Translations under genes and position numbers: made by a program | Notes under the pieces: model-generated | Seen by the model: the letters and a program-made list of their open reading frames with translations, nothing else | Database searches by the model: none | What the model was told of the DNA's origin: nothing | Source of the DNA: an uncultured virus (IMG/VR IMGVR_UViG_3300042402_002237) | Taxonomy: Duplodnaviria > Heunggongvirae > Uroviricota > Caudoviricetes | IMG/VR virus record: IMGVR_UViG_3300042402_002237 | Reading direction: 5' to 3' (one strand) | Length of the DNA stretch: 64,000 bases | Shown here: piece after piece, positions 3,168 to 64,000 of the stretch | How positions within the stretch are numbered: the stretch's first letter is position 1 | Layout of the letters: the number at the start of each line of letters is the position of its first letter

Positions 3168-3303
3168 GCTAAAGACAGCAGACGGAAAGATATCAGCACG
3201 GCAGGTCTTTGTATTTGACCAGCTAGGCGAGGCAGGCTTTCCGGTGTACATACTACGATCATACGACGATATTGATGAATTTTTAAAGGGCGTTTTATTA
3301 TGA
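3031..3303 (+). CDS. VRR-NUC domain nuclease
   Basis: EKQIEKYL, GVPDRLV, LVELK..GK.S..Q motifs; usual position upstream of an SNF2 helicase. Confidence 0.85.
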   Translation: MLEKQIEKYLVKKVTQNKGLTFKWLSTVTGVPDRLVFLNNQVHLVELKTADGKISARQVFVFDQLGEAGFPVYILRSYDDIDEFLKGVLL

Positions 3304-3318
3304 TATTTTGCATTAGTA
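3288..3318 (+). promoter_or_regulatory. phage promoter GGGCG-N16-TGCATTAGTA
   Basis: One of 13 copies of the decamer, all oriented toward a downstream gene. Confidence 0.75.
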
Positions 3319-3409
3319 TAAGTAGAGAAGGCGAAAAGGTTTGCAAGCCCTGTCTGTGCCAGTACACAGTCTAGCCCCTCTAATATCCCCCACTTACTGG
3401 AGTATCAAA

Positions 3410-4420: not shown

Positions 4421-5273
4421 TCTCTGGTCCCAGGTGGGTATATTGGACTTAGGGAGCCGTTTAGAGACGTCCTTGACCCGCTTTAGGGACAAGTACATGG
4501 AACCGGACCAATTTAACCGCCATACACGTGTGGTATATAGCTGGAGGATAAAGAAGGGCATGGACAAGATAATCCAAGACAAGATCTCAGACATTTGTTT
4601 TAGCCTGAGGGCCGAGGATTATTTGACACTACCAAAATTAACCGAGCTGTATCACAAAGTAGACATAACCCCATCGGAACGTAAACAATATGACACACTT
4701 AAAAAAGATATGGTCACCGAGCTTGGGACGGAGACGATCACGGCCCCCACTGCGGCCGCGCTTGCAGGTAAGCTCTTACAATTCACCAGCGGGGCGATCT
4801 ATTCCGAGGATGGTGAGTGGCACGAGGTCCATACGGCTAAGATGGAATTTCTTGAGTCGATCCTGGAGGAGTCCTCGTCCCCGACACTCATTTTTTATCA
4901 CTTCAAGCACTCGCTTAGTAGACTCCAGGCTAGGTTTCCGGAGGCTGTCGTGCTTGATGATACCAACATACAGGCGTGGCGTGATGGTAAGATCAGAATT
5001 ATGCTGGCGCACCCGCAATCAGGTGGCATCGGGCTCAATTTACAGTGTAATGTTGGAGAGACAGCGCAGACCGTCTGGTATGACCTGCCGTGGAGTTCAG
5101 AGAACTACATACAGGCCAACGCAAGGATCTACCGCCAAGGCCAAGAAAAACCGGTTGTTATACACCACCTAGCCGTGGCTAACAGCATCGACGAGCAGGT
5201 AATTAAGGTATTGGACGGAAAAATAAATTTGCAGGACGCCCTGCTAAACGCCCTAAATTTTGCATTAGTATAA
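3912..5273 (+). CDS. SNF2-family DEAD/H helicase (start may be TTG 3927)
   Basis: GLGKT Walker A, IIDESS, LTGTP, GLNLQ, QANARIYRQGQ. Confidence 0.92.
   Translation: MWLNNLKKLKRDQLHHYQLSIVEKAKTTPNIGLLLCPGLGKTATTLTIIAEQLKGKTLIVAPKRVAETVWDTEAKKWEHLQHLKIAKILGTPAQRLTALKSSSNVYLVNLENLIWLLEQPEAQFNNLIIDESSRFKDPSTKRFKALKKHLKSFERRIILTGTPTPQGMGDLWSQVGILDLGSRLETSLTRFRDKYMEPDQFNRHTRVVYSWRIKKGMDKIIQDKISDICFSLRAEDYLTLPKLTELYHKVDITPSERKQYDTLKKDMVTELGTETITAPTAAALAGKLLQFTSGAIYSEDGEWHEVHTAKMEFLESILEESSSPTLIFYHFKHSLSRLQARFPEAVVLDDTNIQAWRDGKIRIMLAHPQSGGIGLNLQCNVGETAQTVWYDLPWSSENYIQANARIYRQGQEKPVVIHHLAVANSIDEQVIKVLDGKINLQDALLNALNFALV
5261..5270 (+). promoter_or_regulatory. phage promoter, TGCATTAGTA only (no GGGCG)
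   Basis: Exact decamer upstream of the ACP gene. Confidence 0.65.
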
Positions 5274-5286
5274 ACTAGGAGAGATA

Positions 5287-5572: not shown

Positions 5573-6700
5573 ATGAAAATTTACATCACTAAATACAAAA
5601 CGCTTTGCACAAAAGAAACTAAGGTATTGGGTGATTTGGTTTACCCACAACGAGTACATTGGATGCCAGAGTTATACACTCGAGTAAAAACGGGGCTGTC
5701 TTACGTGCCCCATGAAATGGCGAATCGTGTGGCTACAAAAGAAATGGTTGATTATGTCAAATCAAATCCAGTGGAAGGCAAGACAGGATTTTTGTTGGCC
5801 GCTGGGTCACAAGGATGGGCAGGGGGCAAAGCAAAAAGTCAAGACAAACCAAGCGAATTAGATTACAATTTCAAACTTGGAATTTTAACAATGACAAACA
5901 TTTTTGCAGGCCGTATAGCAGGAGTGTTTGAGGCGTATGACTACGTGGCGACTGACGCCAGTGCATGCGCAACGAGCATCAAGTGCATGATGGACGTCAA
6001 CAATTTAATTAACAACATGGGGTTTGATCGTGTCATTATGCTGGCTTTGGAAGATCCAACATCTAAACTAACGCTTGAATTTTTTGGTCAATCAAACGCT
6101 AACTTAGTATTAAAAGACGAAGAAGCAGGCGCGGTACCATCCGCATTTGACAGTAAAAATGGTGGGTTTATTATTGGGCAGGGTGCGGGTTTTGCCATAT
6201 TTGAATCTGAGCGTGCAGTACAAAAGAATGCCGTTAAGCCCGAGGCTGAACTAAAAAGTGCTTGGGTATCAGCGGAGCAATTATCAAACCCAATTGGTCA
6301 GCGTCCTGACGGACAGGGATATCAACGAGCTATTATGGGCGCGATTACACAAGCTAAATGTCAACCATCAGATATTAAAATTGTAAAGACACATGGCACC
6401 GGAACGCCGACTAATAATCAATCTGAAAAGAATGCGCTATTGTCAACGTTACGTGGTGGGTTTATTGCAACGTCGTACAAGCAACACATTGGACACACCG
6501 TTGCAGCTAGTGGATTGTTAGAAACCGGTTTAATTTTAGACGATATTAAAAAAGGAGTCATACCTGGGATTAAAAATAGAACAGAAAACGACGACACATT
6601 TATATCAAAAGATACTACGGCCCCCGATGGTTTATTAATGAGTTTAGCAGCCGGTATGGGAAATATTTACGCAGCAGCTATTTTTGACCCACGAGTATGA
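5573..6700 (+). CDS. beta-ketoacyl-ACP synthase (FabB/FabF/type II PKS KS-like)
   Basis: Cys in DASACATS, His in KTHGTGT, SYKQHIGH, GFIIGQGAG. Confidence 0.88.
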   Translation: MKIYITKYKTLCTKETKVLGDLVYPQRVHWMPELYTRVKTGLSYVPHEMANRVATKEMVDYVKSNPVEGKTGFLLAAGSQGWAGGKAKSQDKPSELDYNFKLGILTMTNIFAGRIAGVFEAYDYVATDASACATSIKCMMDVNNLINNMGFDRVIMLALEDPTSKLTLEFFGQSNANLVLKDEEAGAVPSAFDSKNGGFIIGQGAGFAIFESERAVQKNAVKPEAELKSAWVSAEQLSNPIGQRPDGQGYQRAIMGAITQAKCQPSDIKIVKTHGTGTPTNNQSEKNALLSTLRGGFIATSYKQHIGHTVAASGLLETGLILDDIKKGVIPGIKNRTENDDTFISKDTTAPDGLLMSLAAGMGNIYAAAIFDPRV

Positions 6701-7008
6701 AGAAAATCACAGTATACAAAATTAGCGCAACGGCCCCGCGACTCAGCGATGAGGACCCGGACCCAATCGAACAAGACGAGAGCGAGGGCATCTCCTCGAA
6801 TATCATCGAGGGCTGGCTACCCTGGGACCCGGAAGACATCTCAGACATACGTCGACTGATCACAGAGAAGTTACCACCTAAGCAACAGTTTATTATCGAG
6901 GCATTTTTAGATGGGCTAAGTTATACAGACGTATGCGTGACAGAAAAATATTGGCGCTATCATTTTGCTAAGGGCATCGAACTTATCAGGAAGGAACTAA
7001 AGCTATGA
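6697..7008 (+). CDS. stand-alone sigma70 region-4-like HTH protein
   Basis: LPPKQQFII...GLSYTDV...R.HFAKGIELIRKEL resembles sigma region 4. Confidence 0.55.
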   Translation: MKKITVYKISATAPRLSDEDPDPIEQDESEGISSNIIEGWLPWDPEDISDIRRLITEKLPPKQQFIIEAFLDGLSYTDVCVTEKYWRYHFAKGIELIRKELKL

Positions 7009-8270: not shown

Positions 8271-8472
8271 AGATTTGTTAAACCGGGCCGGTATCCGTAA
8301 CGATATAGACAAGGCACTGGAGGACAAAGAGGCGGCCAAGGAGAAACAGATCCAGGAGATGGCCGGGGCAGTGACCCGCCTAATCATCAACGAGTCAATT
8401 AAAGAGGCCAAGGCTCGCGCTGCAGAGCGTGACAGGCTATTAATTAACCCGGATGGGGCGGAAAAGAAGTAG
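8260..8472 (+). CDS. hypothetical protein
   Basis: ORF from ATG 8260. Confidence 0.55.
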   Translation: MNLKDLLNRAGIRNDIDKALEDKEAAKEKQIQEMAGAVTRLIINESIKEAKARAAERDRLLINPDGAEKK

Positions 8473-8486
8473 ATTTTGCATTAGTA
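8456..8486 (+). promoter_or_regulatory. phage promoter GGGCG-N16-TGCATTAGTA
   Basis: Exact bipartite match. Confidence 0.75.
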
Positions 8487-8558
8487 GATATAGGGCTAGT
8501 AAGCTGTCGGGAGACACCCGAACGCCTTATTTTACATACACAAACACAGGAGAATTAC

Positions 8559-9627: not shown

Positions 9628-9652
9628 AAAGGCCCTACGGGGCCTTTATTTT
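9628..9652 (+). terminator. rho-independent terminator
   Basis: AAAGGCCC-TACG-GGGCCTTT followed by ATTTT. Confidence 0.6.
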
Positions 9653-9662
9653 TGCATTAGTA
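9653..9662 (+). promoter_or_regulatory. phage promoter, TGCATTAGTA only
   Basis: Exact decamer upstream of the DUF2800 gene. Confidence 0.65.
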
Positions 9663-9694
9663 TATGTACGACTAAAACGAATTGAAAGAATAAG

Positions 9695-11227: not shown

Positions 11228-11354
11228 AGAGAAGTTATCACAAGAAGAGCTGTCAAAGATCCAAGAGACCCAAGAGCAAACACTTGCGGACTACTATAAA
11301 AGACGGTTGCAATATTGGGATTATCGTATTGTGAAAAATATAAGTGAATAAGTT

Positions 11355-11364
11355 TGCATTAGTA
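11355..11364 (+). promoter_or_regulatory. phage promoter, TGCATTAGTA only
   Basis: Exact decamer upstream of the SSB gene. Confidence 0.65.
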
Positions 11365-11431
11365 TATTTAGTAAAGGGTAGACGAACTGGCCCCTATTGA
11401 AGTCCAGTTCTACAGTTATAAAGGAATCAAC

Positions 11432-14321: not shown

Positions 14322-14347
14322 GGGGAGCTTAGGCTCCCCTCTTTTTT
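14322..14347 (+). terminator. rho-independent terminator
   Basis: GGGGAGC-TTAG-GCTCCCC followed by TCTTTTTT. Confidence 0.65.
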
Positions 14348-14356
14348 GCATTAGTA
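14347..14356 (+). promoter_or_regulatory. phage promoter, TGCATTAGTA only
   Basis: Exact decamer upstream of polA. Confidence 0.65.
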
Positions 14357-14391
14357 TACGTACCGATACGTCGGACAGCCTAAGGAGCGCT

Positions 14392-26789: not shown

Positions 26790-26820
26790 ATTGCCTCCTT
26801 TGGTTAAATGCTTCTACTTA

Positions 26821-26851
26821 TACTAATGCAAGAATATTGAATTTGTCGCCC
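26821..26851 (-). promoter_or_regulatory. phage promoter GGGCG-N16-TGCATTAGTA
   Basis: Exact bipartite match. Confidence 0.75.
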
Positions 26852-32998: not shown

Positions 32999-33029
32999 GT
33001 CGGTTCCTTCGGGTTAATGGTTCTATATC

Positions 33030-33060
33030 TACTAATGCAAAATTAGGGGTGTTTACGCCC
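33030..33060 (-). promoter_or_regulatory. phage promoter GGGCG-N16-TGCATTAGTA
   Basis: Exact bipartite match. Confidence 0.75.
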
Positions 33061-33586: not shown

Positions 33587-33611
33587 AGAGTCTCCTCGTT
33601 AGTTTGCTATA

Positions 33612-33621
33612 TACTAATGCA
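33612..33621 (-). promoter_or_regulatory. phage promoter, TGCATTAGTA only
   Basis: Exact decamer upstream of the lysozyme gene. Confidence 0.6.
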
Positions 33622-33629
33622 AATTTATG

Positions 33630-34064
33630 CTAAGAAAAGGCTCTTGTGCCTGTTTTGTCAATGATAAGCGCCTGCTTACGAGGCGCGGTGTCTTTAGTGT
33701 TTGGCACGCTGATGTGCGTCCAGGAGCCAAACTCTTCGATAATTTGATCAAATGGTATTCCTCCATCGATGCAGGCCTGTACGACCTGTTTGGGGGTCAA
33801 TCCGGGGACTCTGATATCGGCGGCACAACCTATCCTATGTTGGCTAGTGTCCTTGCTACCGACAGAGTCGTTGACTGGTTTAGAGCGAAACGCTGAGTTT
33901 ACAAGGATCGGCTTGTTTAGTAGCGATCTGACCTGTTCTAGTAACTCTGCGGTGCGTACTAGGTTAGCCGTCTCGGTGGCGTTTGGGGTGTTGTCTAGCC
34001 CCTTGCGTTGTGCCACTTCGCTGGCGGTTAGTTCTTCTAGTGTAAAGTTAGGGCTTACGTTCAT
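33630..34064 (-). CDS. peptidase M15A endolysin
   Basis: SPNFTLEE, NSAFRS..VN..VGS..TSQH..G.AAD, WTHIS. Confidence 0.88.
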   Translation of the reverse strand: MNVSPNFTLEELTASEVAQRKGLDNTPNATETANLVRTAELLEQVRSLLNKPILVNSAFRSKPVNDSVGSKDTSQHRIGCAADIRVPGLTPKQVVQACIDGGIPFDQIIEEFGSWTHISVPNTKDTAPRKQALIIDKTGTRAFS

Positions 34065-46468: not shown

Positions 46469-46564
46469 TATGTGTTTCCTTATCTCAGTGGGTATCCCAA
46501 GCTGTCTCTGAGTCGTCTCACCGGGAAGTATCGGCGGTCAGAATGGGATTAATCTTCCTATAAC

Positions 46565-46595
46565 TACTAATGCAAATTAAACAGAAAAGTCGCCC
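46565..46595 (-). promoter_or_regulatory. phage promoter GGGCG-N16-TGCATTAGTA
   Basis: Exact bipartite match. Confidence 0.75.
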
Positions 46596-50311: not shown

Positions 50312-50506
50312 TTACGATTCGTCTTCTTCGTCTTCCGTTAAAATCTCGTTAATAATATCCAACGTAATCTTAAATCCCTCGTGTCGGCCAACCAATCTCT
50401 GGTAGTCCTCAAACGAATTTACGTTAGTTCCCGCGGTAACGGATTCCGCTAGTGATTTTTGCTCAGCCTTTACACGACCGATAATTTCAGATAAAAAGTC
50501 CTTCAT
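50312..50506 (-). CDS. small conserved head-module protein
   Basis: FEDY.R.VG...G motif; probably leaderless. Confidence 0.7.
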   Translation of the reverse strand: MKDFLSEIIGRVKAEQKSLAESVTAGTNVNSFEDYQRLVGRHEGFKITLDIINEILTEDEEDES

Positions 50507-50511
50507 AATCT

Positions 50512-50542
50512 CACTAATGCAAGTATATGAAGGAATCCGCCC
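50512..50542 (-). promoter_or_regulatory. phage promoter GGGCG-N16-TGCATTAGTG
   Basis: Bipartite match with one mismatch. Confidence 0.7.
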
Positions 50543-50547: not shown

Positions 50548-50766
50548 TTAATAAAAATTGCCGCCTTTAAGTTCGTTAAGATTTTTGCCTGGGCCGACTG
50601 GCTTAGCGTTTTTTAAGTTACCTTGCTTGGCGCCAATTTTCCAGTTATTATCCCGGTGGCTGCCAGATGGGCCAGCGTCTAGGGTTTTATCTTCTGGGCC
50701 GCCGCCGCTAGATAGTTTACCAGTCTCTTGGTATGTTTGACGAAAGCCTTTTAAATTTTCGGCCAT
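50548..50766 (-). CDS. hypothetical protein
   Basis: AGGAG RBS. Confidence 0.6.
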   Translation of the reverse strand: MAENLKGFRQTYQETGKLSSGGGPEDKTLDAGPSGSHRDNNWKIGAKQGNLKNAKPVGPGKNLNELKGGNFY

Positions 50767-50767
50767 G

Positions 50768-53515: not shown

Positions 53516-54066
53516 TATTTTTTAATCTTTTTTGAAATTGCGCTAGCCGCTTTTTTAATTGGCTTTGCAAACGGGAGAACACTTAATCCAGCGATTCCAC
53601 CAGTCAAAGCGGCACCGCCAGTTTCTCCTTGCTCTAATTGTCGTTTCATTTCTGGTCCTGCATCAACAATAGATGTCGCCATTGAAAGTGGGTTTAAAAA
53701 TTGAAGTGGTAAATATTCTGATTGCTGACCTTCAAAGCCAGTTCCAAATAATCTGTCGGCTGGTCTTTCGCCAATCAAGCTGGCTATTTTGTCACGCATC
53801 CAGGTTGTAGCTGTTTGGGGTTGTGCTTGAAACGTTGGCTCAACTTCTGGCCGCTGTGAGGCCATTTGGTAGTCGTATGCCTGCATTAGTGCCCTTAACA
53901 TTTCAGGGCTCATTTGATTTGTGCTGCCGCCGTCCGCAAAAAACTTGGGCTGTATGCCAGACTCTTCCATCAACAACTGTTGCGGAGTCTTTAACATGCC
54001 GGGGGAGGCGGGCGTCATGCCAGCCTCTTCCATTAACATTTGTTGTGGGGTCTTTAGAAAGTTCAT
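53515..54066 (-). CDS. hypothetical internal protein (duplicated LKTPQQ.LMEE.G; FADGG motif)
   Basis: Start at ATG 54066, downstream of a promoter. Confidence 0.6.
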   Translation of the reverse strand: MNFLKTPQQMLMEEAGMTPASPGMLKTPQQLLMEESGIQPKFFADGGSTNQMSPEMLRALMQAYDYQMASQRPEVEPTFQAQPQTATTWMRDKIASLIGERPADRLFGTGFEGQQSEYLPLQFLNPLSMATSIVDAGPEMKRQLEQGETGGAALTGGIAGLSVLPFAKPIKKAASAISKKIKK

Positions 54067-54092
54067 TTTGAGCGGGTGGTTATTCCTATTTA

Positions 54093-54123
54093 TACTAATG
54101 CACAAATCCAGGGGTATCCGCCC
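54093..54123 (-). promoter_or_regulatory. phage promoter GGGCG-N16-TGCATTAGTA
   Basis: Exact bipartite match. Confidence 0.75.
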
Positions 54124-55568
54124 TACTGGGCGTAGGGGTTGGCAAATCGCTTGCTTAGGTCGTCGTCCACGTAACTATAGTCTCGAGCCGGTAGCGGGTC
54201 GAGCTGGATCCATCCAGAATCACGTAGAACGCGCAACGCTTGCGAGAGGGAGTCGACGTAGTCGTCGTGTCCACCAGCCTCTGGAAATGAACATACTTGA
54301 CGCAGAAAACGTTTTGCCCAGTCTGCATATTCTCCTTTGCGTTGGGGTTCCTCTGGTATCCAGACTTTGCCCTTAGACACCAGCGGCGCGACAATGTTTA
54401 ACCGTTGTACCTTATCGGCGCGTCCCGGGTTGTATCCCCTGACAGGCACACCAGCTCCCTGGAGCTCCTGGATCAGCGAAATACCCGCCGACTTATCTTC
54501 CATGAGGATCAGGTCCGCCTTTCGGCCCTTACCAAAGTCATTATCGGCGCCGTAAACGACCTCCTTAAAGTCGTTGATTACCTTCCTGCGTAACTCGGGG
54601 TAGGACAGGTGCTCGTCCCAAGCGTCCAGTAATATGATCGCTGTACCAGCGTCTTGTTGTTCAAACACGCCCCAGATGGTGCAGGCGGTTGGGTCGTTCA
54701 TTGTTTTCTCAGAAGTCGCCGGGTCATACGACGCGATGACATACTCCAGTGTCGGAGTTGGCTTGTTGGCTGGCCAGAGCTTAAACTGTTTGCGTTTGAT
54801 GATACCTGACTGTTCTGGGTCAAGGATCTCGCCATAGATCTCTTGTCTTCCAATGTCAGTTCCGTCATACGTTTCAAGCTGTTTGAAAAAAGTCTCTGAA
54901 AGGTTTGCTCGGTTGTCGTAGGACGACGCGTTTGATACGTATACATCCCCACCTACTTTCCCCTCGTTTAAATCTACAATTAATTCTTTTGGCTTGGGTG
55001 TGGTGGTAATAATCTGCTGCACTCGAGGGATGCGTGGGTCCCGTAGACGGAGGGTAAACTGTACTCCATCGTAGGCATCGTCGATGTAATCAAATGCACA
55101 CAGCTCGTCAAACCACGCCCCGTGATATTGTTTACCTCGGTAGCGCTCAGGCTCGGAGGCCGGGATCCCCTGTATAAGAGATCCATTTGTAAGGGTGATT
55201 TCAAACAGGGACTTGTTGTAGTCTCGAATGAGTGACGGGGGAATGATATTGAGAAGTCCAGAGTCCCCCTCGAAACAAGTTGCACGTATATCGTTTGAGG
55301 TGGGAGCGGTGACGAGCCAGCGGGTGTTGTCATACATCCAAGCCCGAATACCAATCCAGTGGCTAGCAGTGTGCGTTTTACCCGATCCACGACCGGCAAG
55401 CATAAGAAACGTGTCATATTCGCCATCCTCTGGCTCCCGTTGGTGTGGTAGCGCCTGTAGGTGCCACTTGACCTGCCAGATGGCAGCCTCAAGCTGTTCC
55501 TTAGGCCAGTGCTTGTTGCTATCTGCGAACTTTTTTAATACAAGCTCTTGTTTTGATGTTAACGACAT
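54123..55568 (-). CDS. terL: terminase large subunit
   Basis: AGRGSGKT Walker A, WFDE Walker B, TTTP, EDKSAG, HDDYVD nuclease. Confidence 0.93.
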   Translation of the reverse strand: MSLTSKQELVLKKFADSNKHWPKEQLEAAIWQVKWHLQALPHQREPEDGEYDTFLMLAGRGSGKTHTASHWIGIRAWMYDNTRWLVTAPTSNDIRATCFEGDSGLLNIIPPSLIRDYNKSLFEITLTNGSLIQGIPASEPERYRGKQYHGAWFDELCAFDYIDDAYDGVQFTLRLRDPRIPRVQQIITTTPKPKELIVDLNEGKVGGDVYVSNASSYDNRANLSETFFKQLETYDGTDIGRQEIYGEILDPEQSGIIKRKQFKLWPANKPTPTLEYVIASYDPATSEKTMNDPTACTIWGVFEQQDAGTAIILLDAWDEHLSYPELRRKVINDFKEVVYGADNDFGKGRKADLILMEDKSAGISLIQELQGAGVPVRGYNPGRADKVQRLNIVAPLVSKGKVWIPEEPQRKGEYADWAKRFLRQVCSFPEAGGHDDYVDSLSQALRVLRDSGWIQLDPLPARDYSYVDDDLSKRFANPYAQ

Positions 55569-56551: not shown

Positions 56552-56819
56552 AAAAATTATCTAGGACCCACAGGTCCAGCCAACGCCCTAACGGCGCCCT
56601 AATTTTGTTTTGGATCTCCACGGGCAGTCGGTTAATATCCATGTGCTCGCAGACCTTTAAACGAAACTCGATGTACTTAGCCGTCTCTTTGTCCAATATT
56701 TCAACTGGCGCGTCGGCAGAGTCAAAGTGATACAGGTTACAGACCAGGACACGGAACCCCCTAAGTCTTCCATTAGAATCTTCTAGGGCACCCTGGATCT
56801 GGTAAACATATTCGTTCAT
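56478..56819 (-). CDS. hypothetical protein (probably leaderless)
   Basis: ATG 5 nt after the promoter decamer. Confidence 0.6.
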   Translation of the reverse strand: MNEYVYQIQGALEDSNGRLRGFRVLVCNLYHFDSADAPVEILDKETAKYIEFRLKVCEHMDINRLPVEIQNKIRAPLGRWLDLWVLDNFYGNTSKSKSPDLGLLETGKQNPAG

Positions 56820-56824
56820 ACATC

Positions 56825-56855
56825 TACTAATGCAAACATTTGATTATTATGGCCC
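56825..56855 (-). promoter_or_regulatory. phage promoter GGGCC-N16-TGCATTAGTA
   Basis: Bipartite match with one mismatch. Confidence 0.7.
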
Positions 56856-56901: not shown

Positions 56902-57014
56902 GCGGCACTTGCGGCACTTGCGGGGGTATATTCCAGGTTTCCCTCTATCTTTATTTTTTATTTTTTAAAAATAATAAAAATAGTAAAGTAACCCCCGCAA
57001 CCCCCGCATCCCCG
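56902..57014. repeat. inverted 9-bp iteron-like repeats around an AT-rich core (possible origin)
   Basis: GCGGCACTT x2 plus TGCGGGGGT ... ACCCCCGCA repeats flanking an A/T tract. Confidence 0.5.
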
Positions 57015-57200
57015 TCAAACATCAAGGACTTAGCGCATTTCATTTCACATTGTGAAATTTACTATACAAATTTTACAAAAAAAATTTTAGAAAGTCGACT
57101 TTTGTGGGTAATGGAACGAGCTTGGGGTCTGTGGGGCCCCCAGCCGGCCGCCCCGCCACGGGACCCAAATTGGCATACCGCATTATGAAAAAGCCCCCCG

Positions 57201-57257
57201 TGCACCAAAATGGTGCACAAATTCACCGCCTTGGTGCGTCTGCACCAACATGGTGCA
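57201..57257. promoter_or_regulatory. three NtrC-box-like sites
   Basis: TGCACCAAAATGGTGCA, TTCACCGCCTTGGTGCG, TGCACCAACATGGTGCA. Confidence 0.65.
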
Positions 57258-57270
57258 CAGCTCGAGCGCT

Positions 57271-57428
57271 TCGATGTTAGTGAGCGCTCACTAACATCGA
57301 GGCACCGCGCCCCCCTGCCAAGTAGCGCATTGGTTAGTGAGTACTAACTAACATGGCCGAGCGCCCACTCTGTCCCCATTATCAGCACTCGATGTGCCTG
57401 AGTGCTAAGTTAGTAAGTGCTAACTAAC
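57271..57428. repeat. three GTTAGTRAG|..CT.ACTAAC palindromes
   Basis: Perfect 30-bp palindrome 57271-57300; related copies at 57333-57352 and 57409-57428. Confidence 0.75.
57382..57408. promoter_or_regulatory. CIRCE element (HrcA operator)
   Basis: TCAGCACTC-N9-GAGTGCTAA; 17/18 match to TTAGCACTC-N9-GAGTGCTAA. Confidence 0.75.
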
Positions 57429-57517
57429 ATGGCGCCCTGTTAGGGTAAATACCTATTGACGGATTGGACGCGTTTTAAGGGGGCTAGGAGGCGCGCAGGG
57501 CAGAGATGATGGTTAGG

Positions 57518-57530
57518 TATCAACTCATTG
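57518..57530 (+). promoter_or_regulatory. IHF-site consensus match
   Basis: TATCAA-CTCA-TTG fits WATCAANNNNTTR. Confidence 0.5.
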
Positions 57531-57628
57531 ACGATCGTTGAGCCATCGAGCTGGGGTGCCACCACAAAGGCTTTGCGGGCGCGAGGGCGGATAGGTGGGG
57601 TGGGCGAGTGATCAGGTAATTTGAGTTA

Positions 57629-57653
57629 CCACAATATCCCACAATCCCCCACA
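57629..57653 (-). promoter_or_regulatory. MraZ-box-like triple repeat
   Basis: TGTGG-N5-TGTGG-N5-TGTGG (10-bp period). Confidence 0.55.
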
Positions 57654-57679
57654 GTTTAGTCAGGTATTTTATTTAGTTG

Positions 57680-57709
57680 TTTACATTTAATTCCAAAGGT
57701 CTGTACAAT
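57680..57709 (+). promoter_or_regulatory. host sigma70-type early promoter
   Basis: TTTACA-N18-TACAAT with AT-rich upstream region. Confidence 0.6.
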
Positions 57710-57893
57710 AGAGGGTATCGGAAGTGCAGTGGCTAATCCACTCAAACGCAAACCCAACCGCGATCTATAAGGGGGAGCCGGCAGAACCGGTGCTGTTATC
57801 CAACACAGCGTATGCTAACAGATAGTAATGCTCAGAGCGCATTGTAACCAGTGCGCTCGAGGCAGTACTAACCAAACAACAGGAGATTACACC

Positions 57894-58145
57894 ATGGCAA
57901 AATTCACAGTCGTTAAGTTAATCGATGAGAAAAAAGTAGTACCTGCAAGATTGTTACCTGAGCAGTGTGGTGGCAACATGACATGGCAGATTGATGACAA
58001 AGACGTATTGGAGTACAACCCCAAGACTAAACAGTTTAGCCTTGAGGTTTATGAGTTCCAAAATGATGACTACGAGCTAGTCAACACCTTGGGGCACGAT
58101 GACGCGTATCAGATAGCATTAGATGAGGGTATCTGCTACGAGTAA
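57894..58145 (+). CDS. early hypothetical protein
   Basis: CAGGAG RBS before ATG 57894. Confidence 0.7.
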   Translation: MAKFTVVKLIDEKKVVPARLLPEQCGGNMTWQIDDKDVLEYNPKTKQFSLEVYEFQNDDYELVNTLGHDDAYQIALDEGICYE

Positions 58146-58147
58146 CA

Positions 58148-58199
58148 GGTCGAAACAGCCTAACGGCTGTCTGCACGTTAGGCGTGCACTGATGAGACC
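58148..58199 (+). ncRNA. type II hammerhead ribozyme
   Basis: GGTC-GAAA-CAGCC-TAAC-GGCTG-TC^-TGCACG-TTAGG-CGTGCA-CTGATGA-GACC. Confidence 0.92.
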
Positions 58200-58220
58200 A
58201 CACACAACACAGGAGAGCCT

Positions 58221-58619
58221 ATGAACTTTCAATACATCTGCAATAACCCACGCACATTTGACTTAGAGATCAACGATTGCGTGGTTCGGGCGCTATCGCT
58301 CGCATTCAATCGGGCGTACCCCGAGGTGCACGAGGTATGTGCCAAGGCAGGGCGCAAGCCACGCCGTGGCATGATGCGTGCCCAAACCGACAAGGCGATC
58401 CAAGTACTGAGCGCCAACAAAGACGCCAAGCTCGAGCGATACAGTCGGGGCAACCGGTGCACACTGGCAACCTTTGCCAAGCACAACCCCAAGGGTAACT
58501 TTATCGTGATCAAGAGGGGACACGCCGTGGCGCTGATCGATGGCGTGTACCACGATAACAGCAACACCGAGACAGGCCTGCCACGCTCGATCGTGCAGGC
58601 GTGTTTTAGGACTAAGTAA
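58221..58619 (+). CDS. early hypothetical protein (DCVVRAL...H......G..D motif)
   Basis: CAGGAG RBS; Cys/His/Asp pattern suggests a papain-like fold. Confidence 0.7.
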   Translation: MNFQYICNNPRTFDLEINDCVVRALSLAFNRAYPEVHEVCAKAGRKPRRGMMRAQTDKAIQVLSANKDAKLERYSRGNRCTLATFAKHNPKGNFIVIKRGHAVALIDGVYHDNSNTETGLPRSIVQACFRTK

Positions 58620-58621
58620 CA

Positions 58622-58671
58622 GGTCGAAACGCCGTGAGGCGTATGCACGTTAGGCGTGCACTGACGAGACC
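58622..58671 (+). ncRNA. type II hammerhead ribozyme
   Basis: GGTC-GAAA-CGCC-GTGA-GGCG-TA^-TGCACG-TTAGG-CGTGCA-CTGACGA-GACC. Confidence 0.92.
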
Positions 58672-58691
58672 AAACAACGGAGAGTAATAAC

Positions 58692-59072
58692 ATGGCATAC
58701 ATGAACCAAGACAAAAAGGCAGTAATCAAGGCAAACCTAGACAAGGCGCTCAAACCACTGGGCATTAAGTTTAGCCTGCGTGTAAGTAATCACATGGCGA
58801 TTACTTGCACAATCAAGAGCGCGCCATTTAATATGCTCGCAGATCGTAAGCAAGCGCTGAGCGCATTCCAACAGGATCATGCGCAGGTCAACCCATACTG
58901 GTTCCAAGACCATTACGTGGGCAAAACACGTGACGTACTGGCTAAGGTCATGGAGGCAATGCAAAGCGCCGGATACTACGATCGCAGTGACGCCATGGTG
59001 GACTACTTCGACACGGCGTACTACTACCATGTCAACATCGGCGACTACGACAAACCATTTCAGGTAAAATAA
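58692..59072 (+). CDS. early protein, LPD29-like
   Basis: K.S.R N-part and YDRSDAMVDYFD motif. Confidence 0.6.
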   Translation: MAYMNQDKKAVIKANLDKALKPLGIKFSLRVSNHMAITCTIKSAPFNMLADRKQALSAFQQDHAQVNPYWFQDHYVGKTRDVLAKVMEAMQSAGYYDRSDAMVDYFDTAYYYHVNIGDYDKPFQVK

Positions 59073-59134
59073 AATCAGTGGCTCGATCTATGAGCCACTG
59101 ACACAGTACAATGATGACATCAACAGGAGATAAT

Positions 59135-59353
59135 ATGAGCTACAATACAGACTGCGCTGAGATTTGGAACCCAACGGGCGCGATTAATTTTGAGGTGCGC
59201 ATGGATCCACTGGGCGCCGGTAAGTACGACGTGTGGGCAGTGCAAGGCGGTTATGCACGCAAGGTCACATCAAACTGGTTTGCCGATCGTAAAGATGCAG
59301 AGGCATTATTTTTATCTAAAGATTATTCTCAATGGATGGAGGAACTACAATGA
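59135..59353 (+). CDS. early hypothetical protein
   Basis: CAGGAG RBS. Confidence 0.65.
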   Translation: MSYNTDCAEIWNPTGAINFEVRMDPLGAGKYDVWAVQGGYARKVTSNWFADRKDAEALFLSKDYSQWMEELQ

Positions 59354-59604
59354 AAGCACTACAAAACTATGTAAAGCAGGCCAATGACTGGAATGCGATC
59401 TTTAATCGTGGTCAGTACGACCTAGCCAATGAGCGCGATCGTCAGCGCCTAGCACGTCGCATTGACAGCGAGCTGAGCCCCGAGAACCTAACCATGGACG
59501 GCGAGCTCTCACGCACCGAGGTCAATCGCAGGTATAATAATTTAATCCGAGTCGCCGAGCAGTTACAGGCACTCGACCCATCAATTCAATTTTCGGAGGT
59601 GTAA
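59350..59604 (+). CDS. early hypothetical protein (LSPENL..DGE family)
   Basis: GGAGG RBS; conserved phage motif. Confidence 0.7.
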   Translation: MKALQNYVKQANDWNAIFNRGQYDLANERDRQRLARRIDSELSPENLTMDGELSRTEVNRRYNNLIRVAEQLQALDPSIQFSEV

Positions 59605-59605
59605 T

Positions 59606-59872
59606 ATGGCAAACCTACAATTTGGCGTGCGTGAGCTAGCAAAGAAGTTCTACCACGACTATCAGGAAGAGCTCTTCAACACGATCAATGACATCGGAGA
59701 CCCGATGCGTGCGCTGAGATTTTTGCAGGGCGTAGCACGCTCTAATCAGTCGTCATGGTCGGGTGGCTTTAGCGCCACCAACATGGAAGAGCAGATCAAG
59801 CGTGAGCTAGCCATCGACATGATGGAGTATGTAATAAATAAGATGGAGTACTCAACAAAGGAGGTAGTATGA
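59606..59872 (+). CDS. early hypothetical protein
   Basis: GGAGGT RBS. Confidence 0.65.
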   Translation: MANLQFGVRELAKKFYHDYQEELFNTINDIGDPMRALRFLQGVARSNQSSWSGGFSATNMEEQIKRELAIDMMEYVINKMEYSTKEVV

Positions 59873-60189
59873 CAGCGACTACATTCCCCGAGTGGGAGCA
59901 GGAACTAGATGCGTGGGAGGCTAAGTATCGCCCGATTAAAAATCGTTTTAATGGCGAAGAGTTATTTCCTGACGATAAGTTCGAGACCTACGGCGCAGAG
60001 CTCGAGTTCGTCCGTGCGCAGGATCCACGCAATATTTGGACACTGGTCGACGGCGACGACGGCAACCTGTATATAGTAAGTGGGTACCACTTGGTTAACA
60101 GGATCAATTACTTTGTGACCGAGGTACCATACGAGGGCGACGGCATGGACGTGCCGTACTACATATTTGACGAAGAGGAGACAGAATGA
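59869..60189 (+). CDS. early hypothetical protein (FETYG...IWT..DGD...G.H.VNRI.Y family)
   Basis: AAGGAGGT RBS; conserved motif. Confidence 0.7.
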   Translation: MTATTFPEWEQELDAWEAKYRPIKNRFNGEELFPDDKFETYGAELEFVRAQDPRNIWTLVDGDDGNLYIVSGYHLVNRINYFVTEVPYEGDGMDVPYYIFDEEETE

Positions 60190-60371
60190 TGAGCTACGAT
60201 GCAGATTTTGAGAAGGTTTACATGGTCGAGTTCGAGTCGGGCAGGACCATCCACGTGCAGTTCTTTGACGTTGAAGACGTAAAGGAGTACTGCGCACAGA
60301 ACCACGGCGGTATCGCCATTAAATCAATCTACCAAGAGGTTTACTGTAACTTTGAAGAGGAGACAGAATGA
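60186..60371 (+). CDS. early hypothetical protein
   Basis: Coupled ORF. Confidence 0.65.
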   Translation: MMSYDADFEKVYMVEFESGRTIHVQFFDVEDVKEYCAQNHGGIAIKSIYQEVYCNFEEETE

Positions 60372-60514
60372 AAGTTGTCAGCCACGAATTATTAATCCAC
60401 TGGAGCGACGGGACTAGCGAAGTTCGCACAGATTTTCCGTACATTGAGTACATTGATGAGTATTTACAGGAACTAGAAAATGAATACGTTAAAGATGAGG
60501 AGGAGACAGAATGA
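60368..60514 (+). CDS. early hypothetical protein (48 aa)
   Basis: Read by hand; bounded by the same junction repeat. Confidence 0.65.
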   Translation: MKVVSHELLIHWSDGTSEVRTDFPYIEYIDEYLQELENEYVKDEEETE

Positions 60515-60738
60515 CTGAATTAAGATCACTGATTAGCGCCACGATTAAAGAGCGCTACGAGCCCGAGTATCAACCCAGTATCACGGACGCACAGGCGCTA
60601 GGCGCCATGATATCGAGCCATTTTATGTGGGATGGCGTTCAGATATTAGATGCGTTACAATACGCACTGGAAGACGCCAATTTTCACAGTGTCAACGAAC
60701 AGATCAACGCCATTAGAAAGAAGGAAGACCTACTATGA
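60511..60738 (+). CDS. early hypothetical protein
   Basis: Coupled ORF (ALEDANFH). Confidence 0.65.
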   Translation: MTELRSLISATIKERYEPEYQPSITDAQALGAMISSHFMWDGVQILDALQYALEDANFHSVNEQINAIRKKEDLL

Positions 60739-61004
60739 CACGCAAGCACAGACTAGCATATAACGCACTCAGGAAGATCAACGCACCCGTATACGAGCGT
60801 GTTGATATCAAAAACTTTCAGATCAGCGCCGAGCATAATTTCGACACGAAGTACGGCAACACGCTATGGGCAGATTATTATGACGGGCACACGATCGGAT
60901 CAGATTGGGAGTTTGGTGTCAACCCACTGATCACCGAGACGTTAAACAAGTACGGGCTCTACGCCGAATGGATCAACGCAGGTGAACTGGGAGTATACGA
61001 ATGA
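60735..61004 (+). CDS. early hypothetical protein
   Basis: Coupled ORF. Confidence 0.65.
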   Translation: MTRKHRLAYNALRKINAPVYERVDIKNFQISAEHNFDTKYGNTLWADYYDGHTIGSDWEFGVNPLITETLNKYGLYAEWINAGELGVYE

Positions 61005-61237
61005 ACCGACTAATTAAGGCAGTGGAGATTTTGAAGGATCGTTATAAGCACGAGATCTATAAAAGCGGTGACTGGTCTTACAATCTGTGGTCGTGGACTG
61101 TTACCATTGCAATAAACGAAGAGGACGACAGCAGTTACGACGTCGTGGCGTATCGTGCCAAGGGTAACGTGACGGACTGGTCGGACTGTGTAGTGTTACC
61201 ATCATATCCAGTACAATGGGAGTTAACTTATGAGTAA
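61001..61237 (+). CDS. early hypothetical protein
   Basis: Coupled ORF. Confidence 0.6.
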   Translation: MNRLIKAVEILKDRYKHEIYKSGDWSYNLWSWTVTIAINEEDDSSYDVVAYRAKGNVTDWSDCVVLPSYPVQWELTYE

Positions 61238-61412
61238 GTATATTGTGACGTACGTACGTGAGTCGTATTACTCGACTGTGATTGACGCCGAGGACATTGA
61301 CGAGGCACGTAAAAAAGCGTGGAGTGTAAACCTCTTAGACTTGGAGCACGACTACGACAGTGGTGTGTTTAAAATTAACAACGTGGTACCACAAATAGGG
61401 ATAACAAAATGA
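61230..61412 (+). CDS. early hypothetical protein
   Basis: GGAG RBS. Confidence 0.6.
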   Translation: MSKYIVTYVRESYYSTVIDAEDIDEARKKAWSVNLLDLEHDYDSGVFKINNVVPQIGITK

Positions 61413-61717
61413 CATTCACATTAGAAGACGTAAACAATATCGAGTTTAACGAAGAGATCAGCGAGGCAGACTACTACGCCTCCATACAGCGAGCAATCAA
61501 CGGCGGTATGTGGTCATTACAAGGATCGTATGGTCGTACCATGATGGAGGCAATCGAGGCAGGCAAGTGCCTGCTAGGTCTTAAAGGCGCCAGTGACTAC
61601 TGGGGCAACACCATCCCGTCACGCCTCCAAGTACAGGACGGCACCAAGGGATCGTGGGAGTACGTAAAGCAACACAACGGCGTAGTATGGGCAAACAAAA
61701 TGGCAGGAGTGAAATAA
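61409..61717 (+). CDS. early hypothetical protein (W.LQGSYGR family)
   Basis: Conserved phage motif. Confidence 0.7.
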   Translation: MTFTLEDVNNIEFNEEISEADYYASIQRAINGGMWSLQGSYGRTMMEAIEAGKCLLGLKGASDYWGNTIPSRLQVQDGTKGSWEYVKQHNGVVWANKMAGVK

Positions 61718-61846
61718 CATGAGCCAAAAACAATTTATCAAGTTGTTGATTGAGGTTAGTGAGCGCCTCGCAGACGAGTCGGACTACGAGGATTATCTTT
61801 TACCACAGCTACAAAACGCCGTGGATTACTTGGAGGAGCTACAATA

Positions 61847-62053
61847 ATGGCATTCTATTACTTTGGCGACATGGAGTTCGGGGACTTTGTGAAGGGCGAC
61901 GACCACTACCCAGTGGCGCTGATCCACGCAGTACGTGACACACGGGAGTTTGCCACGGAGGAAGAGGCAGACGACTACATGGTCGAGCAGGGGTTTGGTG
62001 GGTATGTAAACGCCGACTCCAAGAACATTGAGATATACTTTGCAAAGAAATAA
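61847..62053 (+). CDS. early hypothetical protein
   Basis: GGAGGAG RBS. Confidence 0.65.
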   Translation: MAFYYFGDMEFGDFVKGDDHYPVALIHAVRDTREFATEEEADDYMVEQGFGGYVNADSKNIEIYFAKK

Positions 62054-62068
62054 AAAGGTCTGTATAAT
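62040..62068 (+). promoter_or_regulatory. host sigma70-type promoter
   Basis: TTGCAA-N17-TATAAT; shares AAAGGTCTG-TAYAATA with the promoter at 57680. Confidence 0.7.
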
Positions 62069-62089
62069 ATTACTTTTAACGGAGGAATT

Positions 62090-62398
62090 ATGAACACAAT
62101 CAACGTACCATCATTTAACGAAGTACCTGCATTCACCGACGACTTGGTCGACCAGTTGGGCGCAGTCAAGCAGGCAATCGACGAGCTCGAGGCAACAGCA
62201 CGCAAGTTTAAGGCAGAGCTCATCAAGCGTGGCGTAGGCACCTACGAGGGCTCCAAGTTCTTTGCCGAGGTGCAACACTACGATCGTGCCACGATCAGCC
62301 CTACACTGGTGCGCAAGCTCAGCAACGAAGACTTCGTCAAGCAGGTCACCGAGGTCAAGGCAGTTGACGCCGTAGTAGTCAAGGCACTGGGGGTGTAG
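62090..62398 (+). CDS. hypothetical protein
   Basis: GGAGG RBS. Confidence 0.7.
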   Translation: MNTINVPSFNEVPAFTDDLVDQLGAVKQAIDELEATARKFKAELIKRGVGTYEGSKFFAEVQHYDRATISPTLVRKLSNEDFVKQVTEVKAVDAVVVKALGV

Positions 62399-62399
62399 T

Positions 62400-62597
62400 A
62401 TGAAGATCGGCGACGTGCTACACAACGGCGCCACTGTGCTCCAGTTTAGCGACAACGCTATACTGGCGACGTGGCGCAGTAAGGTGACGCCATTCGTAAC
62501 GTGGCGCTACTTTGAGGGCGACCCTAGGTCAACGTCATGGGGTCACTACTTTAGCAACCTTGAGGATGCGGTTAAAGACTATGAGGAAAGAAAATGA
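62400..62597 (+). CDS. hypothetical protein (FVTW...WGHYF...A..DY..R family)
   Basis: Conserved motif. Confidence 0.7.
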   Translation: MKIGDVLHNGATVLQFSDNAILATWRSKVTPFVTWRYFEGDPRSTSWGHYFSNLEDAVKDYEERK

Positions 62598-62751
62598 GTA
62601 ACTACAAATTCGTCCTGATTGACGAGTTTGGCGGGGCTGTACGCAAGTTTGCGAGTAAGTTGGAGGCTACCCCCTACCTTACCAACGGAACACGCCTAGA
62701 GCCCCTGCCAAAGGCGCCAAAAACGAATCTATATCAACAGGCACTATTACT

Positions 62752-62940
62752 TTGTGGAGAGGCACCATTTTGAAAATCATCGGCGCATTTATTGTAATGA
62801 TCACTGGGTTTTGGTTTGCCCAAGGGATGTTTGATCTGTATACGATCTTGTGGTTTGTATTTGGGCTAGCAATGCTCATACCAACAGAAGTTTATAAAAC
62901 ATTATGGGAGCTATATGAAAGAAAACGACATTCTAAGTGA
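62752..62940 (+). CDS. small membrane protein (start may be TTG 62770)
   Basis: Two hydrophobic segments. Confidence 0.5.
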   Translation: MWRGTILKIIGAFIVMITGFWFAQGMFDLYTILWFVFGLAMLIPTEVYKTLWELYERKRHSK

Positions 62941-63487
62941 CTACCTCAAGTCGCTGTACGGCATCGAGCCGTTGACAGTGGAGGAAGAGCACGAGCTCGC
63001 CAAGAGGATTCAAGCAGGCGACGAGGGTGCACTTGAGCAGTTGATCAAGCACAACCTGCGCTTTGTGGTCTACGTCGTCCGTAAGATGACGGCGTGGAAC
63101 CACGGCAAGGTGCCAGTGGAGGACATGGTCGCCATGGGTAACGAGGCATTGTTTACGGCGGGTCGTAGGTGGGTGCCTAAGAACAACGCACGCTTTGCCA
63201 CATACGCCAAGACGTTTATTGAGAAGGGCGTACGGCGTGACCTAGACAACACGGCAAACATCATACGCCTGCCAATCAATATCATGGAGCAGGTAAAGAA
63301 GTTAAACTATACCGAGCGCTCGCTATCCCAAGTACTGGGGCGTAAGCCCAAGACGCACGAGATCGCCACGCTCATGGGCGTCACAGAGAGCAAGGTGCAC
63401 CAGTTGCAGGGATACATCGCACGTGAGCCAGTATCGCTCGACCACATCAACCAAGAGAAGTTTACCGAGGAGCATTTAGATGATTGA
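62915..63487 (+). CDS. sigma70-family factor, regions 1.2-3 only (lacks region 4)
   Basis: L..EEE.ELA, LI.HNLRFVV, ED....GN..L..A, RFATYA...I, IRLP, LGR.P...EIA, PVSLD then stop. Confidence 0.88.
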   Translation: MKENDILSDYLKSLYGIEPLTVEEEHELAKRIQAGDEGALEQLIKHNLRFVVYVVRKMTAWNHGKVPVEDMVAMGNEALFTAGRRWVPKNNARFATYAKTFIEKGVRRDLDNTANIIRLPINIMEQVKKLNYTERSLSQVLGRKPKTHEIATLMGVTESKVHQLQGYIAREPVSLDHINQEKFTEEHLDD

Positions 63488-63827
63488 ACTAAACGAAGAA
63501 CAACAGAGGGCATACGCACGCTTTATCAAGGCACGTGACCGAGTGGGACTGGGCGCCGTAAAGCCAAACAAAAATTACAGTTGGGTGCCCCTATCCGACT
63601 ACTCATCGTGCGTGGACGTCGCGGGCATGAACCACCCACTATTTGTACAAAACGACGAGTGGCTCGAATACAAGGAGGCATTTGCCTCGTGGCTTGCAGT
63701 TGAGCCGGAGTTTAGAGACCGAGAGCGTATGCGCATGAGTCGGGGCGACTACGGCACGCAGGACAGTTGGGAAGAGCGTGGCAACAAGGTAACGGACATC
63801 GTTAACAAGATCAAGGAGGAAAAATGA
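63480..63827 (+). CDS. hypothetical protein
   Basis: GAGGAG RBS; overlap with the sigma gene. Confidence 0.65.
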   Translation: MIELNEEQQRAYARFIKARDRVGLGAVKPNKNYSWVPLSDYSSCVDVAGMNHPLFVQNDEWLEYKEAFASWLAVEPEFRDRERMRMSRGDYGTQDSWEERGNKVTDIVNKIKEEK

Positions 63828-64000
63828 GGGTGATACCAACCGACGTATTAGACAAGGACGGCAACCTAGAAAAGATCGAGTTTTATGACGAGCTCGGTGG
63901 ATTCCAATTTCAGGCCATGTGGGACCCAGTCGACGAGCAAAACGCAGACAACCGACGTGAATTTAGGGAGTGGGCCAATGGCATGGCCAAGCGCATGGAC
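63824..64000 (+). CDS. hypothetical protein (3' truncated by window edge)
   Basis: AGGAGG RBS and ATGA overlap; open to the window end. Confidence 0.55.
   Translation, partial: MRVIPTDVLDKDGNLEKIEFYDELGGFQFQAMWDPVDEQNADNRREFREWANGMAKRMD

Follow-up and report, generated by a model that had tools for sequence, protein, structure and literature searches.

A putative split sigma factor that may time middle and late gene expression in a group of lake phages

Late transcription of phage T4 depends on gp55 and gp33, which together with the gp45 clamp have been called a split sigma, and the T4 late promoters have a -10 element and no evident -35 element (PMC12867686). Two-subunit sigma factors have also been reported for SPO1 (gp34/gp33), Bacillus subtilis (SigO-RsoA) and Tn916 (Sig7-Sig8) (bioRxiv 10.64898/2026.10.01.756105). 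In phage phiEco32 the phage sigma gp36 is reported to be stabilised by the small protein gp79, which also displaces the sigma of the host (PMC12276001). Split sigmas are known from few systems, none of which is known to divide an RpoD-like sigma between domains 3 and 4 and to place its parts in different temporal classes. Here, a candidate for such an arrangement is described in a stretch of 64 kb (47% G+C) from an uncultured member of the Caudoviricetes (IMG/VR record IMGVR_UViG_3300042402_002237), hereafter called the window, which looks like most of the genome of a tailed phage. The window encodes a sigma factor of 190 amino acids (aa) without region 4, a separate 103-aa protein with a predicted region-4-like domain, and two classes of phage-type promoters, one of which carries a GGGCG box. 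It is proposed, with a probability of roughly 0.55, that the two proteins form a naturally split sigma that gives a middle-to-late cascade and times the expression of the phage genes; this reading is plausible and consistent with the predictions presented below. A literature search, which covered subscription journals only to a small extent, returned no description of such an arrangement.

With T4 the phage shares a sigma piece without region 4, and in combination with a separate small protein in the place of region 4 this piece would, as in T4, switch on the late genes. T4 activation needs the sliding clamp, whereas no member of a sliding-clamp family was found among the 50 and 78 open reading frames (ORFs) scanned in the window, which may be less than the whole genome, and a conserved box is present at about -35. 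The sigma piece of this phage is RpoD-like and comprises regions 1.2 to 3, in contrast to the minimal region-2 protein of T4. In addition, a tblastn search with the 103-aa protein gave no match at E<=1 in a collection of 50,697 phage records, in which T4 is assumed to be included. The likeness to SPO1 is that two phage proteins jointly direct late transcription by the host core polymerase, which is here proposed. SPO1 appears to be set apart by the same lack of matches in the phage collection and by the observation that the inspected Bacillus-phage matches to the present sigma are full-length sigmas (e.g. a 256-aa gene). As in SigO-RsoA and Sig7-Sig8, two polypeptides would share the reading of the -10 and -35 elements. 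Those pairs are made of regions 2 and 4 of group-4-like factors with adjacent genes, whereas this phage has an RpoD-like sigma that is cut within region 3.2, and the genes are 5.8-9.9 kb apart in relatives and under different promoter types. Therefore, one sigma body could serve two promoter classes. Finally, phiEco32 also combines a phage sigma and a small phage protein on the host polymerase, but gp79 is not described there as supplying a missing sigma domain (PMC12276001). The present case differs from the known two-subunit sigmas in the cut inside region 3.2 of an RpoD-like sigma, in its clear -35-type box and in the location of the two genes in different transcription classes.

The 190-aa sigma (Table 1) matched three Pfam domains above their cut-offs. 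Residues 5-37 scored 32.6 bits with Sigma70_r1_2 (cut-off 22) and residues 125-177 scored 40.7 bits with Sigma70_r3 (cut-off 25.3), while residues 43-108, which align with RpoD region 2, scored 24.7 bits with Sigma70_r2 (cut-off 24). It also matched PHROG 351 (sigma factor) with an E-value of 5e-30. Region 4 gave no Pfam match above the cut-off, and the sole region-4 row (12.4 bits, cut-off 24.1) fell on the helix-turn-helix (HTH) of region 3 at residues 148-165. The longer relatives of the protein are cellular RpoD-type proteins only, with 27-37% identity. In an alignment with 43 of them, all of which have region 4, it covered region 1.2 to the EPVSL motif of region 3.2 and ended in an acidic stretch immediately past this motif. 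An earlier note on this DNA, made from the sequence alone, had claimed that the sigma lacks region 4 and stops right after region 3 (PVSLD), and both statements were borne out. The same end point and the same acidic tail were present in 44 of 45 loci of relatives, the remaining one being cut by the end of its contig. The gene is therefore not broken and its truncation is conserved. Similarly, the best 120 of 570 near-length sigma relatives (counted as clusters) are all 188-221 aa long and none has a Pfam region-4 domain. Two matches in phage records, from a Bacillus phage and a Klebsiella phage, were inspected and found to be full-length sigma genes.

The motif TGCATTAGT occurs 14 times exactly in the window, against about 0.5 times expected from its length alone, and 13 of these 14 sites share the promoter-like context TTTGCATTAGTA. 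In seven of the 13 predicted promoters the pentamer GGGCG starts exactly 20 nucleotides (nt) before TTGCATTAGT (at 3288, 8456, 54123, 50542, 46595, 33060 and 26851) and an eighth, at 56835, has GGGCC at the box offset. This accounts for the eight promoters with a -35 element at fixed spacing that had been listed before. The five promoters without a box precede the 103-aa operon, the replication genes and the endolysin gene. The classes track function: box-less promoters go with replication and the like, and boxed promoters mostly with packaging and structural genes. The site at 5261, which the earlier note had described as a -10-only promoter upstream of the 103-aa ORF, indeed has no box. It is followed by 5287-5571, 5561-6700 and 6697-7008, which have overlapping ends and the same orientation, and no terminator-like site was found between them on the + strand. 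The + strand between 56835 and the sigma gene contains no phage-type core, and the sigma gene is therefore presumably read by the host holoenzyme. The more specific claim that it is made from host-type promoters was not supported, as sigma-70-type matches in the early region numbered 8, against 8.3 in shuffled sequences, which is not above chance.

The position of the transcription start was deduced from a comparison of five genomes, i.e. the window and four complete or near-complete relatives (G002-G005) with sigmas roughly 50-63% identical to that of the window. The largest peak, with 13 of 56 sites, was for an ATG at a distance of exactly 16 nt from the first T of the core on its downstream side, and each of these ATGs opens a conserved ORF of 62-152 aa. 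Leaderless messages begin at their own start codon. Therefore, +1 was placed at the conserved A (preceded by T) sixteen bases after the first T of TTGCATTAGT, which is probably its position. This implies that several conserved small genes have leaderless messages; examples would be the 64-aa ORF (MKDF...) at 50506 and the 113-aa ORF (MNEY...) at 56819. In this register TG would occupy -15/-14, ATTAGT -12 to -7 and GGGCG about -36 to -32, which would match the canonical arrangement of an extended -10 with a -35. The two positions of the core at which the genomes differ then fall at -13 and -8, the least constrained positions of an extended -10. In three relatives the 103-aa gene comes first, with its ATG exactly at the putative +1 of the orthologous box-less promoter. 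Its own expression should therefore be independent of the box.

The cores of the four relatives have drifted to TTGCATTA[AT]T, TTGCATTATT, TTGTATTATT and TTGCATAAGT, and TTGCATTAGT itself gave no match in their whole records. RGGGCG(G) was retained, with the spacing unchanged, at 5 of 9 core sites, at 3 of 11 (a further one has GGACG), at 8 of 14 and at 5 of 9 (a further one has a variant). In 158 distinct promoter contexts from the loci of relatives, 42 of the 44 GGGCG occurrences within 60 nt upstream sit at the fixed offset; many of these contexts are orthologous copies, so the counts are not independent. The helix VTEK[YH]WRYH[FY] of the 103-aa family is kept in all five genomes, whereas regions 2.4 and 3.0 of the sigma vary. 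The conserved box thus goes with the conserved helix and the drifting core with the drifting sigma, a correlation over five genomes and not a statistical covariation. This correlation and the position of the box would fit a reading of GGGCG as a -35 element by the 103-aa protein.

The 103-aa protein carries an invariant motif in its tail (PRLSDE-DP-E), in which D22 and E25 are unchanged even at 25% identity, and its domain ends in the conserved helix VTEKYWRYHF. This last helix (VTEKYWRYH) is the most conserved stretch of the family, down to about 25% identity. In an AlphaFold2 model of the protein, the ten-residue blocks of residues 41-103 had confidence values (pLDDT) of 79-98, and three helices were placed at 45-58, 61-71 and 83-100. 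When the model was searched with VIA-align against 48,161 chains, 24 of the top 25 rows were sigma factors by title, with Z-scores of 8.4-6.0; the remaining row was 9n9q_C. Each of the sigma rows spanned the whole domain, and HTHs of the LuxR/FixJ type followed at lower Z-scores of 6.0-4.5. As a Z-score near 8 is insufficient alone, the likeness to a sigma-4 fold rests on the unanimity of the list, the coverage of the full domain and the contrast with the model of the ORF downstream of the sigma gene (Z<=5.5, see below). Foldseek also placed sigma-4 domains in the top rows in PDB and BFVD with non-significant E-values, and superposed region 4 of SigR on the model with a template modelling (TM) score of 0.71 and a root mean square deviation of 1.6 A over 59 columns. 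The recognition helix of the model is its last helix, as in sigma-4 and unlike in GerE/LuxR. Residues 44-103 are therefore predicted, with a middling Z-score and a shortened first HTH helix, to adopt a sigma-4-type fold in which the recognition helix comes last. T4 gp33 was not among the top 50 structure rows, an absence that excludes nothing.

Sixty-two distinct relatives of the 103-aa protein were collected from loci. Among 1.84 billion representative proteins, 33 matched the profile of the family at E<=0.001; all but two of these (229 and 1,251 aa) are shorter than 130 aa, and none has the length of a sigma. The region of the last helix (residues 83-103) has a charge of +2.9 and the N-terminal tail of -5.5, and in distant family members the C-terminal domain is clearly basic, up to +9. 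A predicted complex of the truncated sigma and the 103-aa protein, each entered as an alignment, scored 0.10 against a mark of 0.32, which says nothing either way.

The occurrence of the two genes in related phages agreed with the pairing suggested in the earlier note. Both are present in five of the five genomes compared. The 103-aa gene was found in all 13 sigma loci with enough downstream sequence, and the sigma in all 15 loci that contain the 103-aa gene and enough upstream sequence. These two sets overlap, several of their contigs are identical and all belong to one phage group. Searches with distant members of the 103-aa family gave either closer relatives within this phage group or contigs of 3.5-5.5 kb, which are too short to contain a sigma gene at a distance of 6-10 kb.

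The analysis shows how the genes are built and conserved, which fold is predicted, and that there are two promoter classes with their respective gene content; from this we infer the binding steps and their timing as follows. The early region, which has no phage-type promoters, would make the 190-aa RpoD-like sigma, comprising sigma-1.2, sigma-2, sigma-3 and the first arm of the 3.2 finger. On the host core RNA polymerase this protein would read TTTGCATTAGTA as an extended -10 for which contact with a -35 is not needed, and the box-less 'middle' promoters of the replication genes would fire. One of these middle promoters would produce the 103-aa protein, the sigma-4-like domain of which may then occupy the place of region 4 on the polymerase and read GGGCG(G) at about -36 to -31, with the acidic N-terminal tail substituting for the absent covalent 3.2 linker. 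As a result, the boxed 'late' promoters of the packaging and structural genes would be switched on or boosted. A more detailed version is put forward tentatively and is rather doubtful. In this version the sigma is cut at the tip of the 3.2 finger and the two polypeptides are made at different times, which yields two successive specificities (-10 only, then -35 plus -10), while the PRLSDE-DP-E tail threads the RNA exit channel and anchors the free sigma-4 on the flap.

Several results weigh against the proposed split sigma. The best Z-score of the 103-aa model, 8.4, is within the range that can be reached without a true match, since values near 8 occur in VIA-align without true kinship. The resemblance of this ORF to sigma region 4, as claimed in the earlier note, is found in the fold and not in the sequence: the Pfam check remained below the curated cut-off, with a match to Sigma70_r4_2 at E 0.018 and 15.1 bits against 25.7. 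At E<=1, this Pfam domain was detected in no more than 13 of the 29 and 10 of the 31 members of the 103-aa family that were examined, with a best E-value of 0.0023. Sequence-profile searches of PDB with the family gave nothing significant, and the sub-threshold matches include GerE and FixJ. Alignment of the family by hhalign to the region-4 slice of the RpoD relatives reached a probability of 3% and a pairwise E-value of 0.014, in the expected register; the whole RpoD alignment gave no match. The alignment to the slice had a gap of 4-6 residues at the first helix of the HTH. That helix is 4-6 residues shorter than in sigma-4 and was modelled as a loop. Furthermore, the whole protein is acidic (isoelectric point (pI) 4.8) and its domain near neutral (-1.1), and DNA binding is therefore not assured. 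Full-length sigmas were absent from the profile matches to the family in the 1.84 billion proteins. The co-occurrence spans one phage group only, and in contig L055/L143 no sigma was present within the 9.9 kb examined upstream of the 103-aa gene, the contig extending 3.3 kb further. As for the cascade as a whole, which the earlier note had outlined as a truncated sigma firing middle promoters, one of which yields the region-4 piece for the late promoters, every computational check that was run fits (truncation, fold, box position and promoter classes), except that the sequence match is sub-threshold, the first HTH helix is shortened and the host-type promoters are unsupported.

The same observations bear on other explanations. 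It is conceivable, but unlikely, that the 103-aa protein is a free-standing late activator, an HTH protein of the sigma-4/LuxR superfamily that binds GGGCG alone and recruits polymerase with the truncated sigma without sitting at the region-4 site on the beta flap. The cascade would then have the same outcome by a mechanism that is not a split sigma, comparable to the small sigma-like late activators of other phages. The nearest named clusters in the ESM Atlas point in this direction, as a lead only: with scores of 0.90-0.93, they consist of small HTH proteins (about 95-157 aa) that stand alone and are encoded by phages and mobile elements, and several are labelled sigma-like, HTH_50, HTH_38 or GerE. 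The sub-threshold sequence matches to GerE and FixJ are also in line with an activator, and activators that overlap the -35 likewise tend to have their box at a fixed position. However, sigma-4 chains outrank chains of the LuxR/FixJ type in the structure search, and in GerE/LuxR the recognition helix is followed by a further helix, which is missing from the 103-aa protein. None of the Pfam families of phage late activators was matched at E<=1 by any of the 29 or 31 family members. Moreover, the partner sigma is without region 4 in every relative, and the flap site is therefore left free.

Less probable again is that the 103-aa protein mimics region 4 on the beta flap and does not read DNA. It would be either a co-activator like T4 gp33 or a competitor that displaces region 4 of the host sigma and so shuts off the -35-dependent host promoters, and the box would be read by another factor, e.g. 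the 115-aa protein encoded next to the sigma or a host factor. The overall acidity of the protein (pI 4.8, tail -5.5), the shortened scaffold helix of its HTH and the translational coupling of the conserved 115-aa gene to the sigma in all relatives checked would suit such a role. On the other hand, the basic last helix is better conserved than any other part of the family, and it stays unchanged along with the box while the -10 core changes between genomes. The clearly basic C-terminal domain of distant members (up to +9), the lack of a DNA-binding fold for the 115-aa protein in the structure search and the lack of a sliding-clamp gene in the window also argue against it. That the two genes are functionally unrelated seems very improbable. 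The truncated sigma would then serve both promoter classes, GGGCG would be a strength or spacing element touched by the polymerase and the 103-aa protein would regulate something else. No direct link between the two proteins was obtained, which is compatible with this, and E. coli sigma-70 lacking region 4 can use extended -10 promoters. But it leaves unexplained why a G+C-rich pentamer stands at one exact offset in five diverged genomes, confined to late-type genes, and why a sigma-4-like protein is found in every genome of a group whose sigma is without that domain.

Table 1. Positions in the window of the two proposed sigma pieces, the ORF next to the sigma gene and the predicted phage-type promoters
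Feature	Position	Strand	Description
Truncated sigma factor	62915..63487	+	190 aa; regions 1.2, 2, 3.0-3.1 and first part of 3.2; acidic C-terminal tail; without region 4
115-aa ORF	63480..63827	+	Shares 8 nt at its start with the end of the sigma gene; conserved immediately behind sigma in relatives
103-aa protein	6697..7008	+	Residues 1-43, acidic disordered tail; residues 44-103, predicted sigma-region-4-like three-helix domain
Box-less promoter	5240..5276	+	Core 5260-5269, within last helicase codons; putative +1 5276; upstream of ACP-like, KAS-like and 103-aa genes
Box-less promoter	9632..9668	+	Core 9652; upstream of exonuclease gene
Box-less promoter	11334..11370	+	Core 11354; upstream of SSB and ribonucleotide reductase genes
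Box-less promoter	14326..14362	+	Core 14346; upstream of DNA polymerase gene
Box-less promoter	33606..33642	-	Core 33622; upstream of endolysin gene 33053-33586
Boxed promoter	3288..3324	+	GGGCG 3288-3292; core 3308; upstream of ORF 3341-4420
Boxed promoter	8456..8492	+	Core 8476; upstream of small ORFs and small-terminase-like gene 9210-9599
Variant-box (GGGCC) promoter	56819..56855	-	Core 56835; ATG at putative +1 (56819) opens 113-aa ORF, head of packaging module
Boxed promoter	54087..54123	-	Core 54103, variant GTGCATTAGT; inside end of large terminase gene
Boxed promoter	50506..50542	-	Core 50522; ATG at putative +1 (50506) opens conserved 64-aa ORF
Boxed promoter	46559..46595	-	Core 46575; head-gene region, just downstream of capsid-like gene 46651-47568, upstream of ORF 46007-46468
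Boxed promoter	33024..33060	-	Core 33040; upstream of 32351-32998 and subsequent virion genes
Boxed promoter	26815..26851	-	Core 26831; upstream of 26631-26789 and large tail-region genes
ACP, acyl carrier protein; KAS, beta-ketoacyl synthase; SSB, single-stranded DNA-binding protein.

The 115-aa ORF was represented by 38 distinct sequences in relatives, with invariant motifs such as NHP, EP-R and RGDYG. Its model consists of two long helices and a beta hairpin and gave generic helical matches only, with a best Z-score of 5.5. On the basis of this model the ORF was rejected as the missing region 4, and a fusion of the sigma to it by frameshift or readthrough is unsupported. The ORF is associated with the sigma gene and, judged by its modelled structure, is not sigma-4-like and is a candidate member only; its product may associate with the polymerase as a partner of the sigma.

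Between the box-less promoter and the 103-aa gene the window contains an ACP-like and a KAS-like ORF (5287-6700, + strand). The ACP-like ORF (94 aa) has a GIDSLD motif and no Pfam match at E<=0.001, and the KAS-like ORF (379 aa) matches the Pfam N- and C-terminal ketoacyl-synt domains. In relatives G002, G003 and G004 the 103-aa gene directly follows the promoter without this pair. Because of this, the pair, of lipid or polyketide type, looks like an insertion in the lineage of the window. The promoter itself is embedded in the final helicase codons (5232-5269, + strand; ...N F A L V stop), and shortly before its core at 5260 the box appears twice in inverted form, at 5253 and 5241 (as CGCCC, with GGGCG on the - strand). 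The inverted boxes may form an autoregulatory site, or they may have arisen by chance where codons for Ala-Leu are repeated. The ORF 3341-4420 (+ strand) behind the first boxed promoter overlaps the start of the helicase gene (3912-5273) in another frame for about 500 nt, so that its end is uncertain; the first half of its product looks like an HNH endonuclease by sequence.

On the + strand the window has small early ORFs at about 57000-64000 and, at 1-16305, replication genes: the end of a primase, an SNF2 helicase, a PD-(D/E)XK exonuclease, a gp2.5-like SSB, a ribonucleotide reductase and a family A DNA polymerase. The stretch 16306-56551 is devoted, on the - strand, to the genes for packaging, head, tail and lysis. 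The gene at 16306-17799 (- strand) encodes a 497-aa protein with a weak match, below the cut-off, to the ADP-ribosyltransferase domain of polyvalent proteins (E 4e-4) and a match to a PHROG of unknown function. Where the packaging and early genes diverge (57201-57433), there are three copies of a 25-nt palindromic unit, GTTAGTnAGynCTnACTAACAT (57276, 57333 and 57409), and beside them two copies of a 36-nt unit containing TGCACCAAnATGGTGCA; these look like operator or origin repeats. The whole record of relative G005 has about 90 copies of a unit containing TAGCCAGAGATACCAG. The 9-mer TGTTTAAAC, built on the palindrome GTTTAAAC, occurs 28 times in L018 and 13 times in L139, both 20-kb loci.

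No close relative was present in the phage record collection, and megablast of 62000-64000 against phages gave 0 matches. The large terminase is 53% identical to that of an uncultured spring-water phage and 42% to those of some Caulobacter phages. IMG/VR holds many relatives of this phage, with 177 stretches that encode relatives of the 103-aa protein, and the stretch is present in DNA runs from several freshwater and lake studies. Six metatranscriptome runs contain 8-9% of the words sampled from 45001-55000. On the basis of the 570 sigma clusters, the 177 IMG/VR stretches and the freshwater DNA runs, these are abundant lake phages. If the proposed split sigma is real, this group would show how a single sigma gene can be turned by a virus into a switch from middle to late expression. 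The more detailed version given above, with the cut at the tip of the 3.2 finger, would if true be a minimal and modular timing switch that is not known to have been described for any phage, and a natural test of the role of the 3.2 linker. The system is simple, as it consists of two small proteins, a 37-bp promoter and a five-base box, and would inform on the roles of sigma domain 4 and of the 3.2 linker in initiation. Its parts could serve as orthogonal transcription modules.

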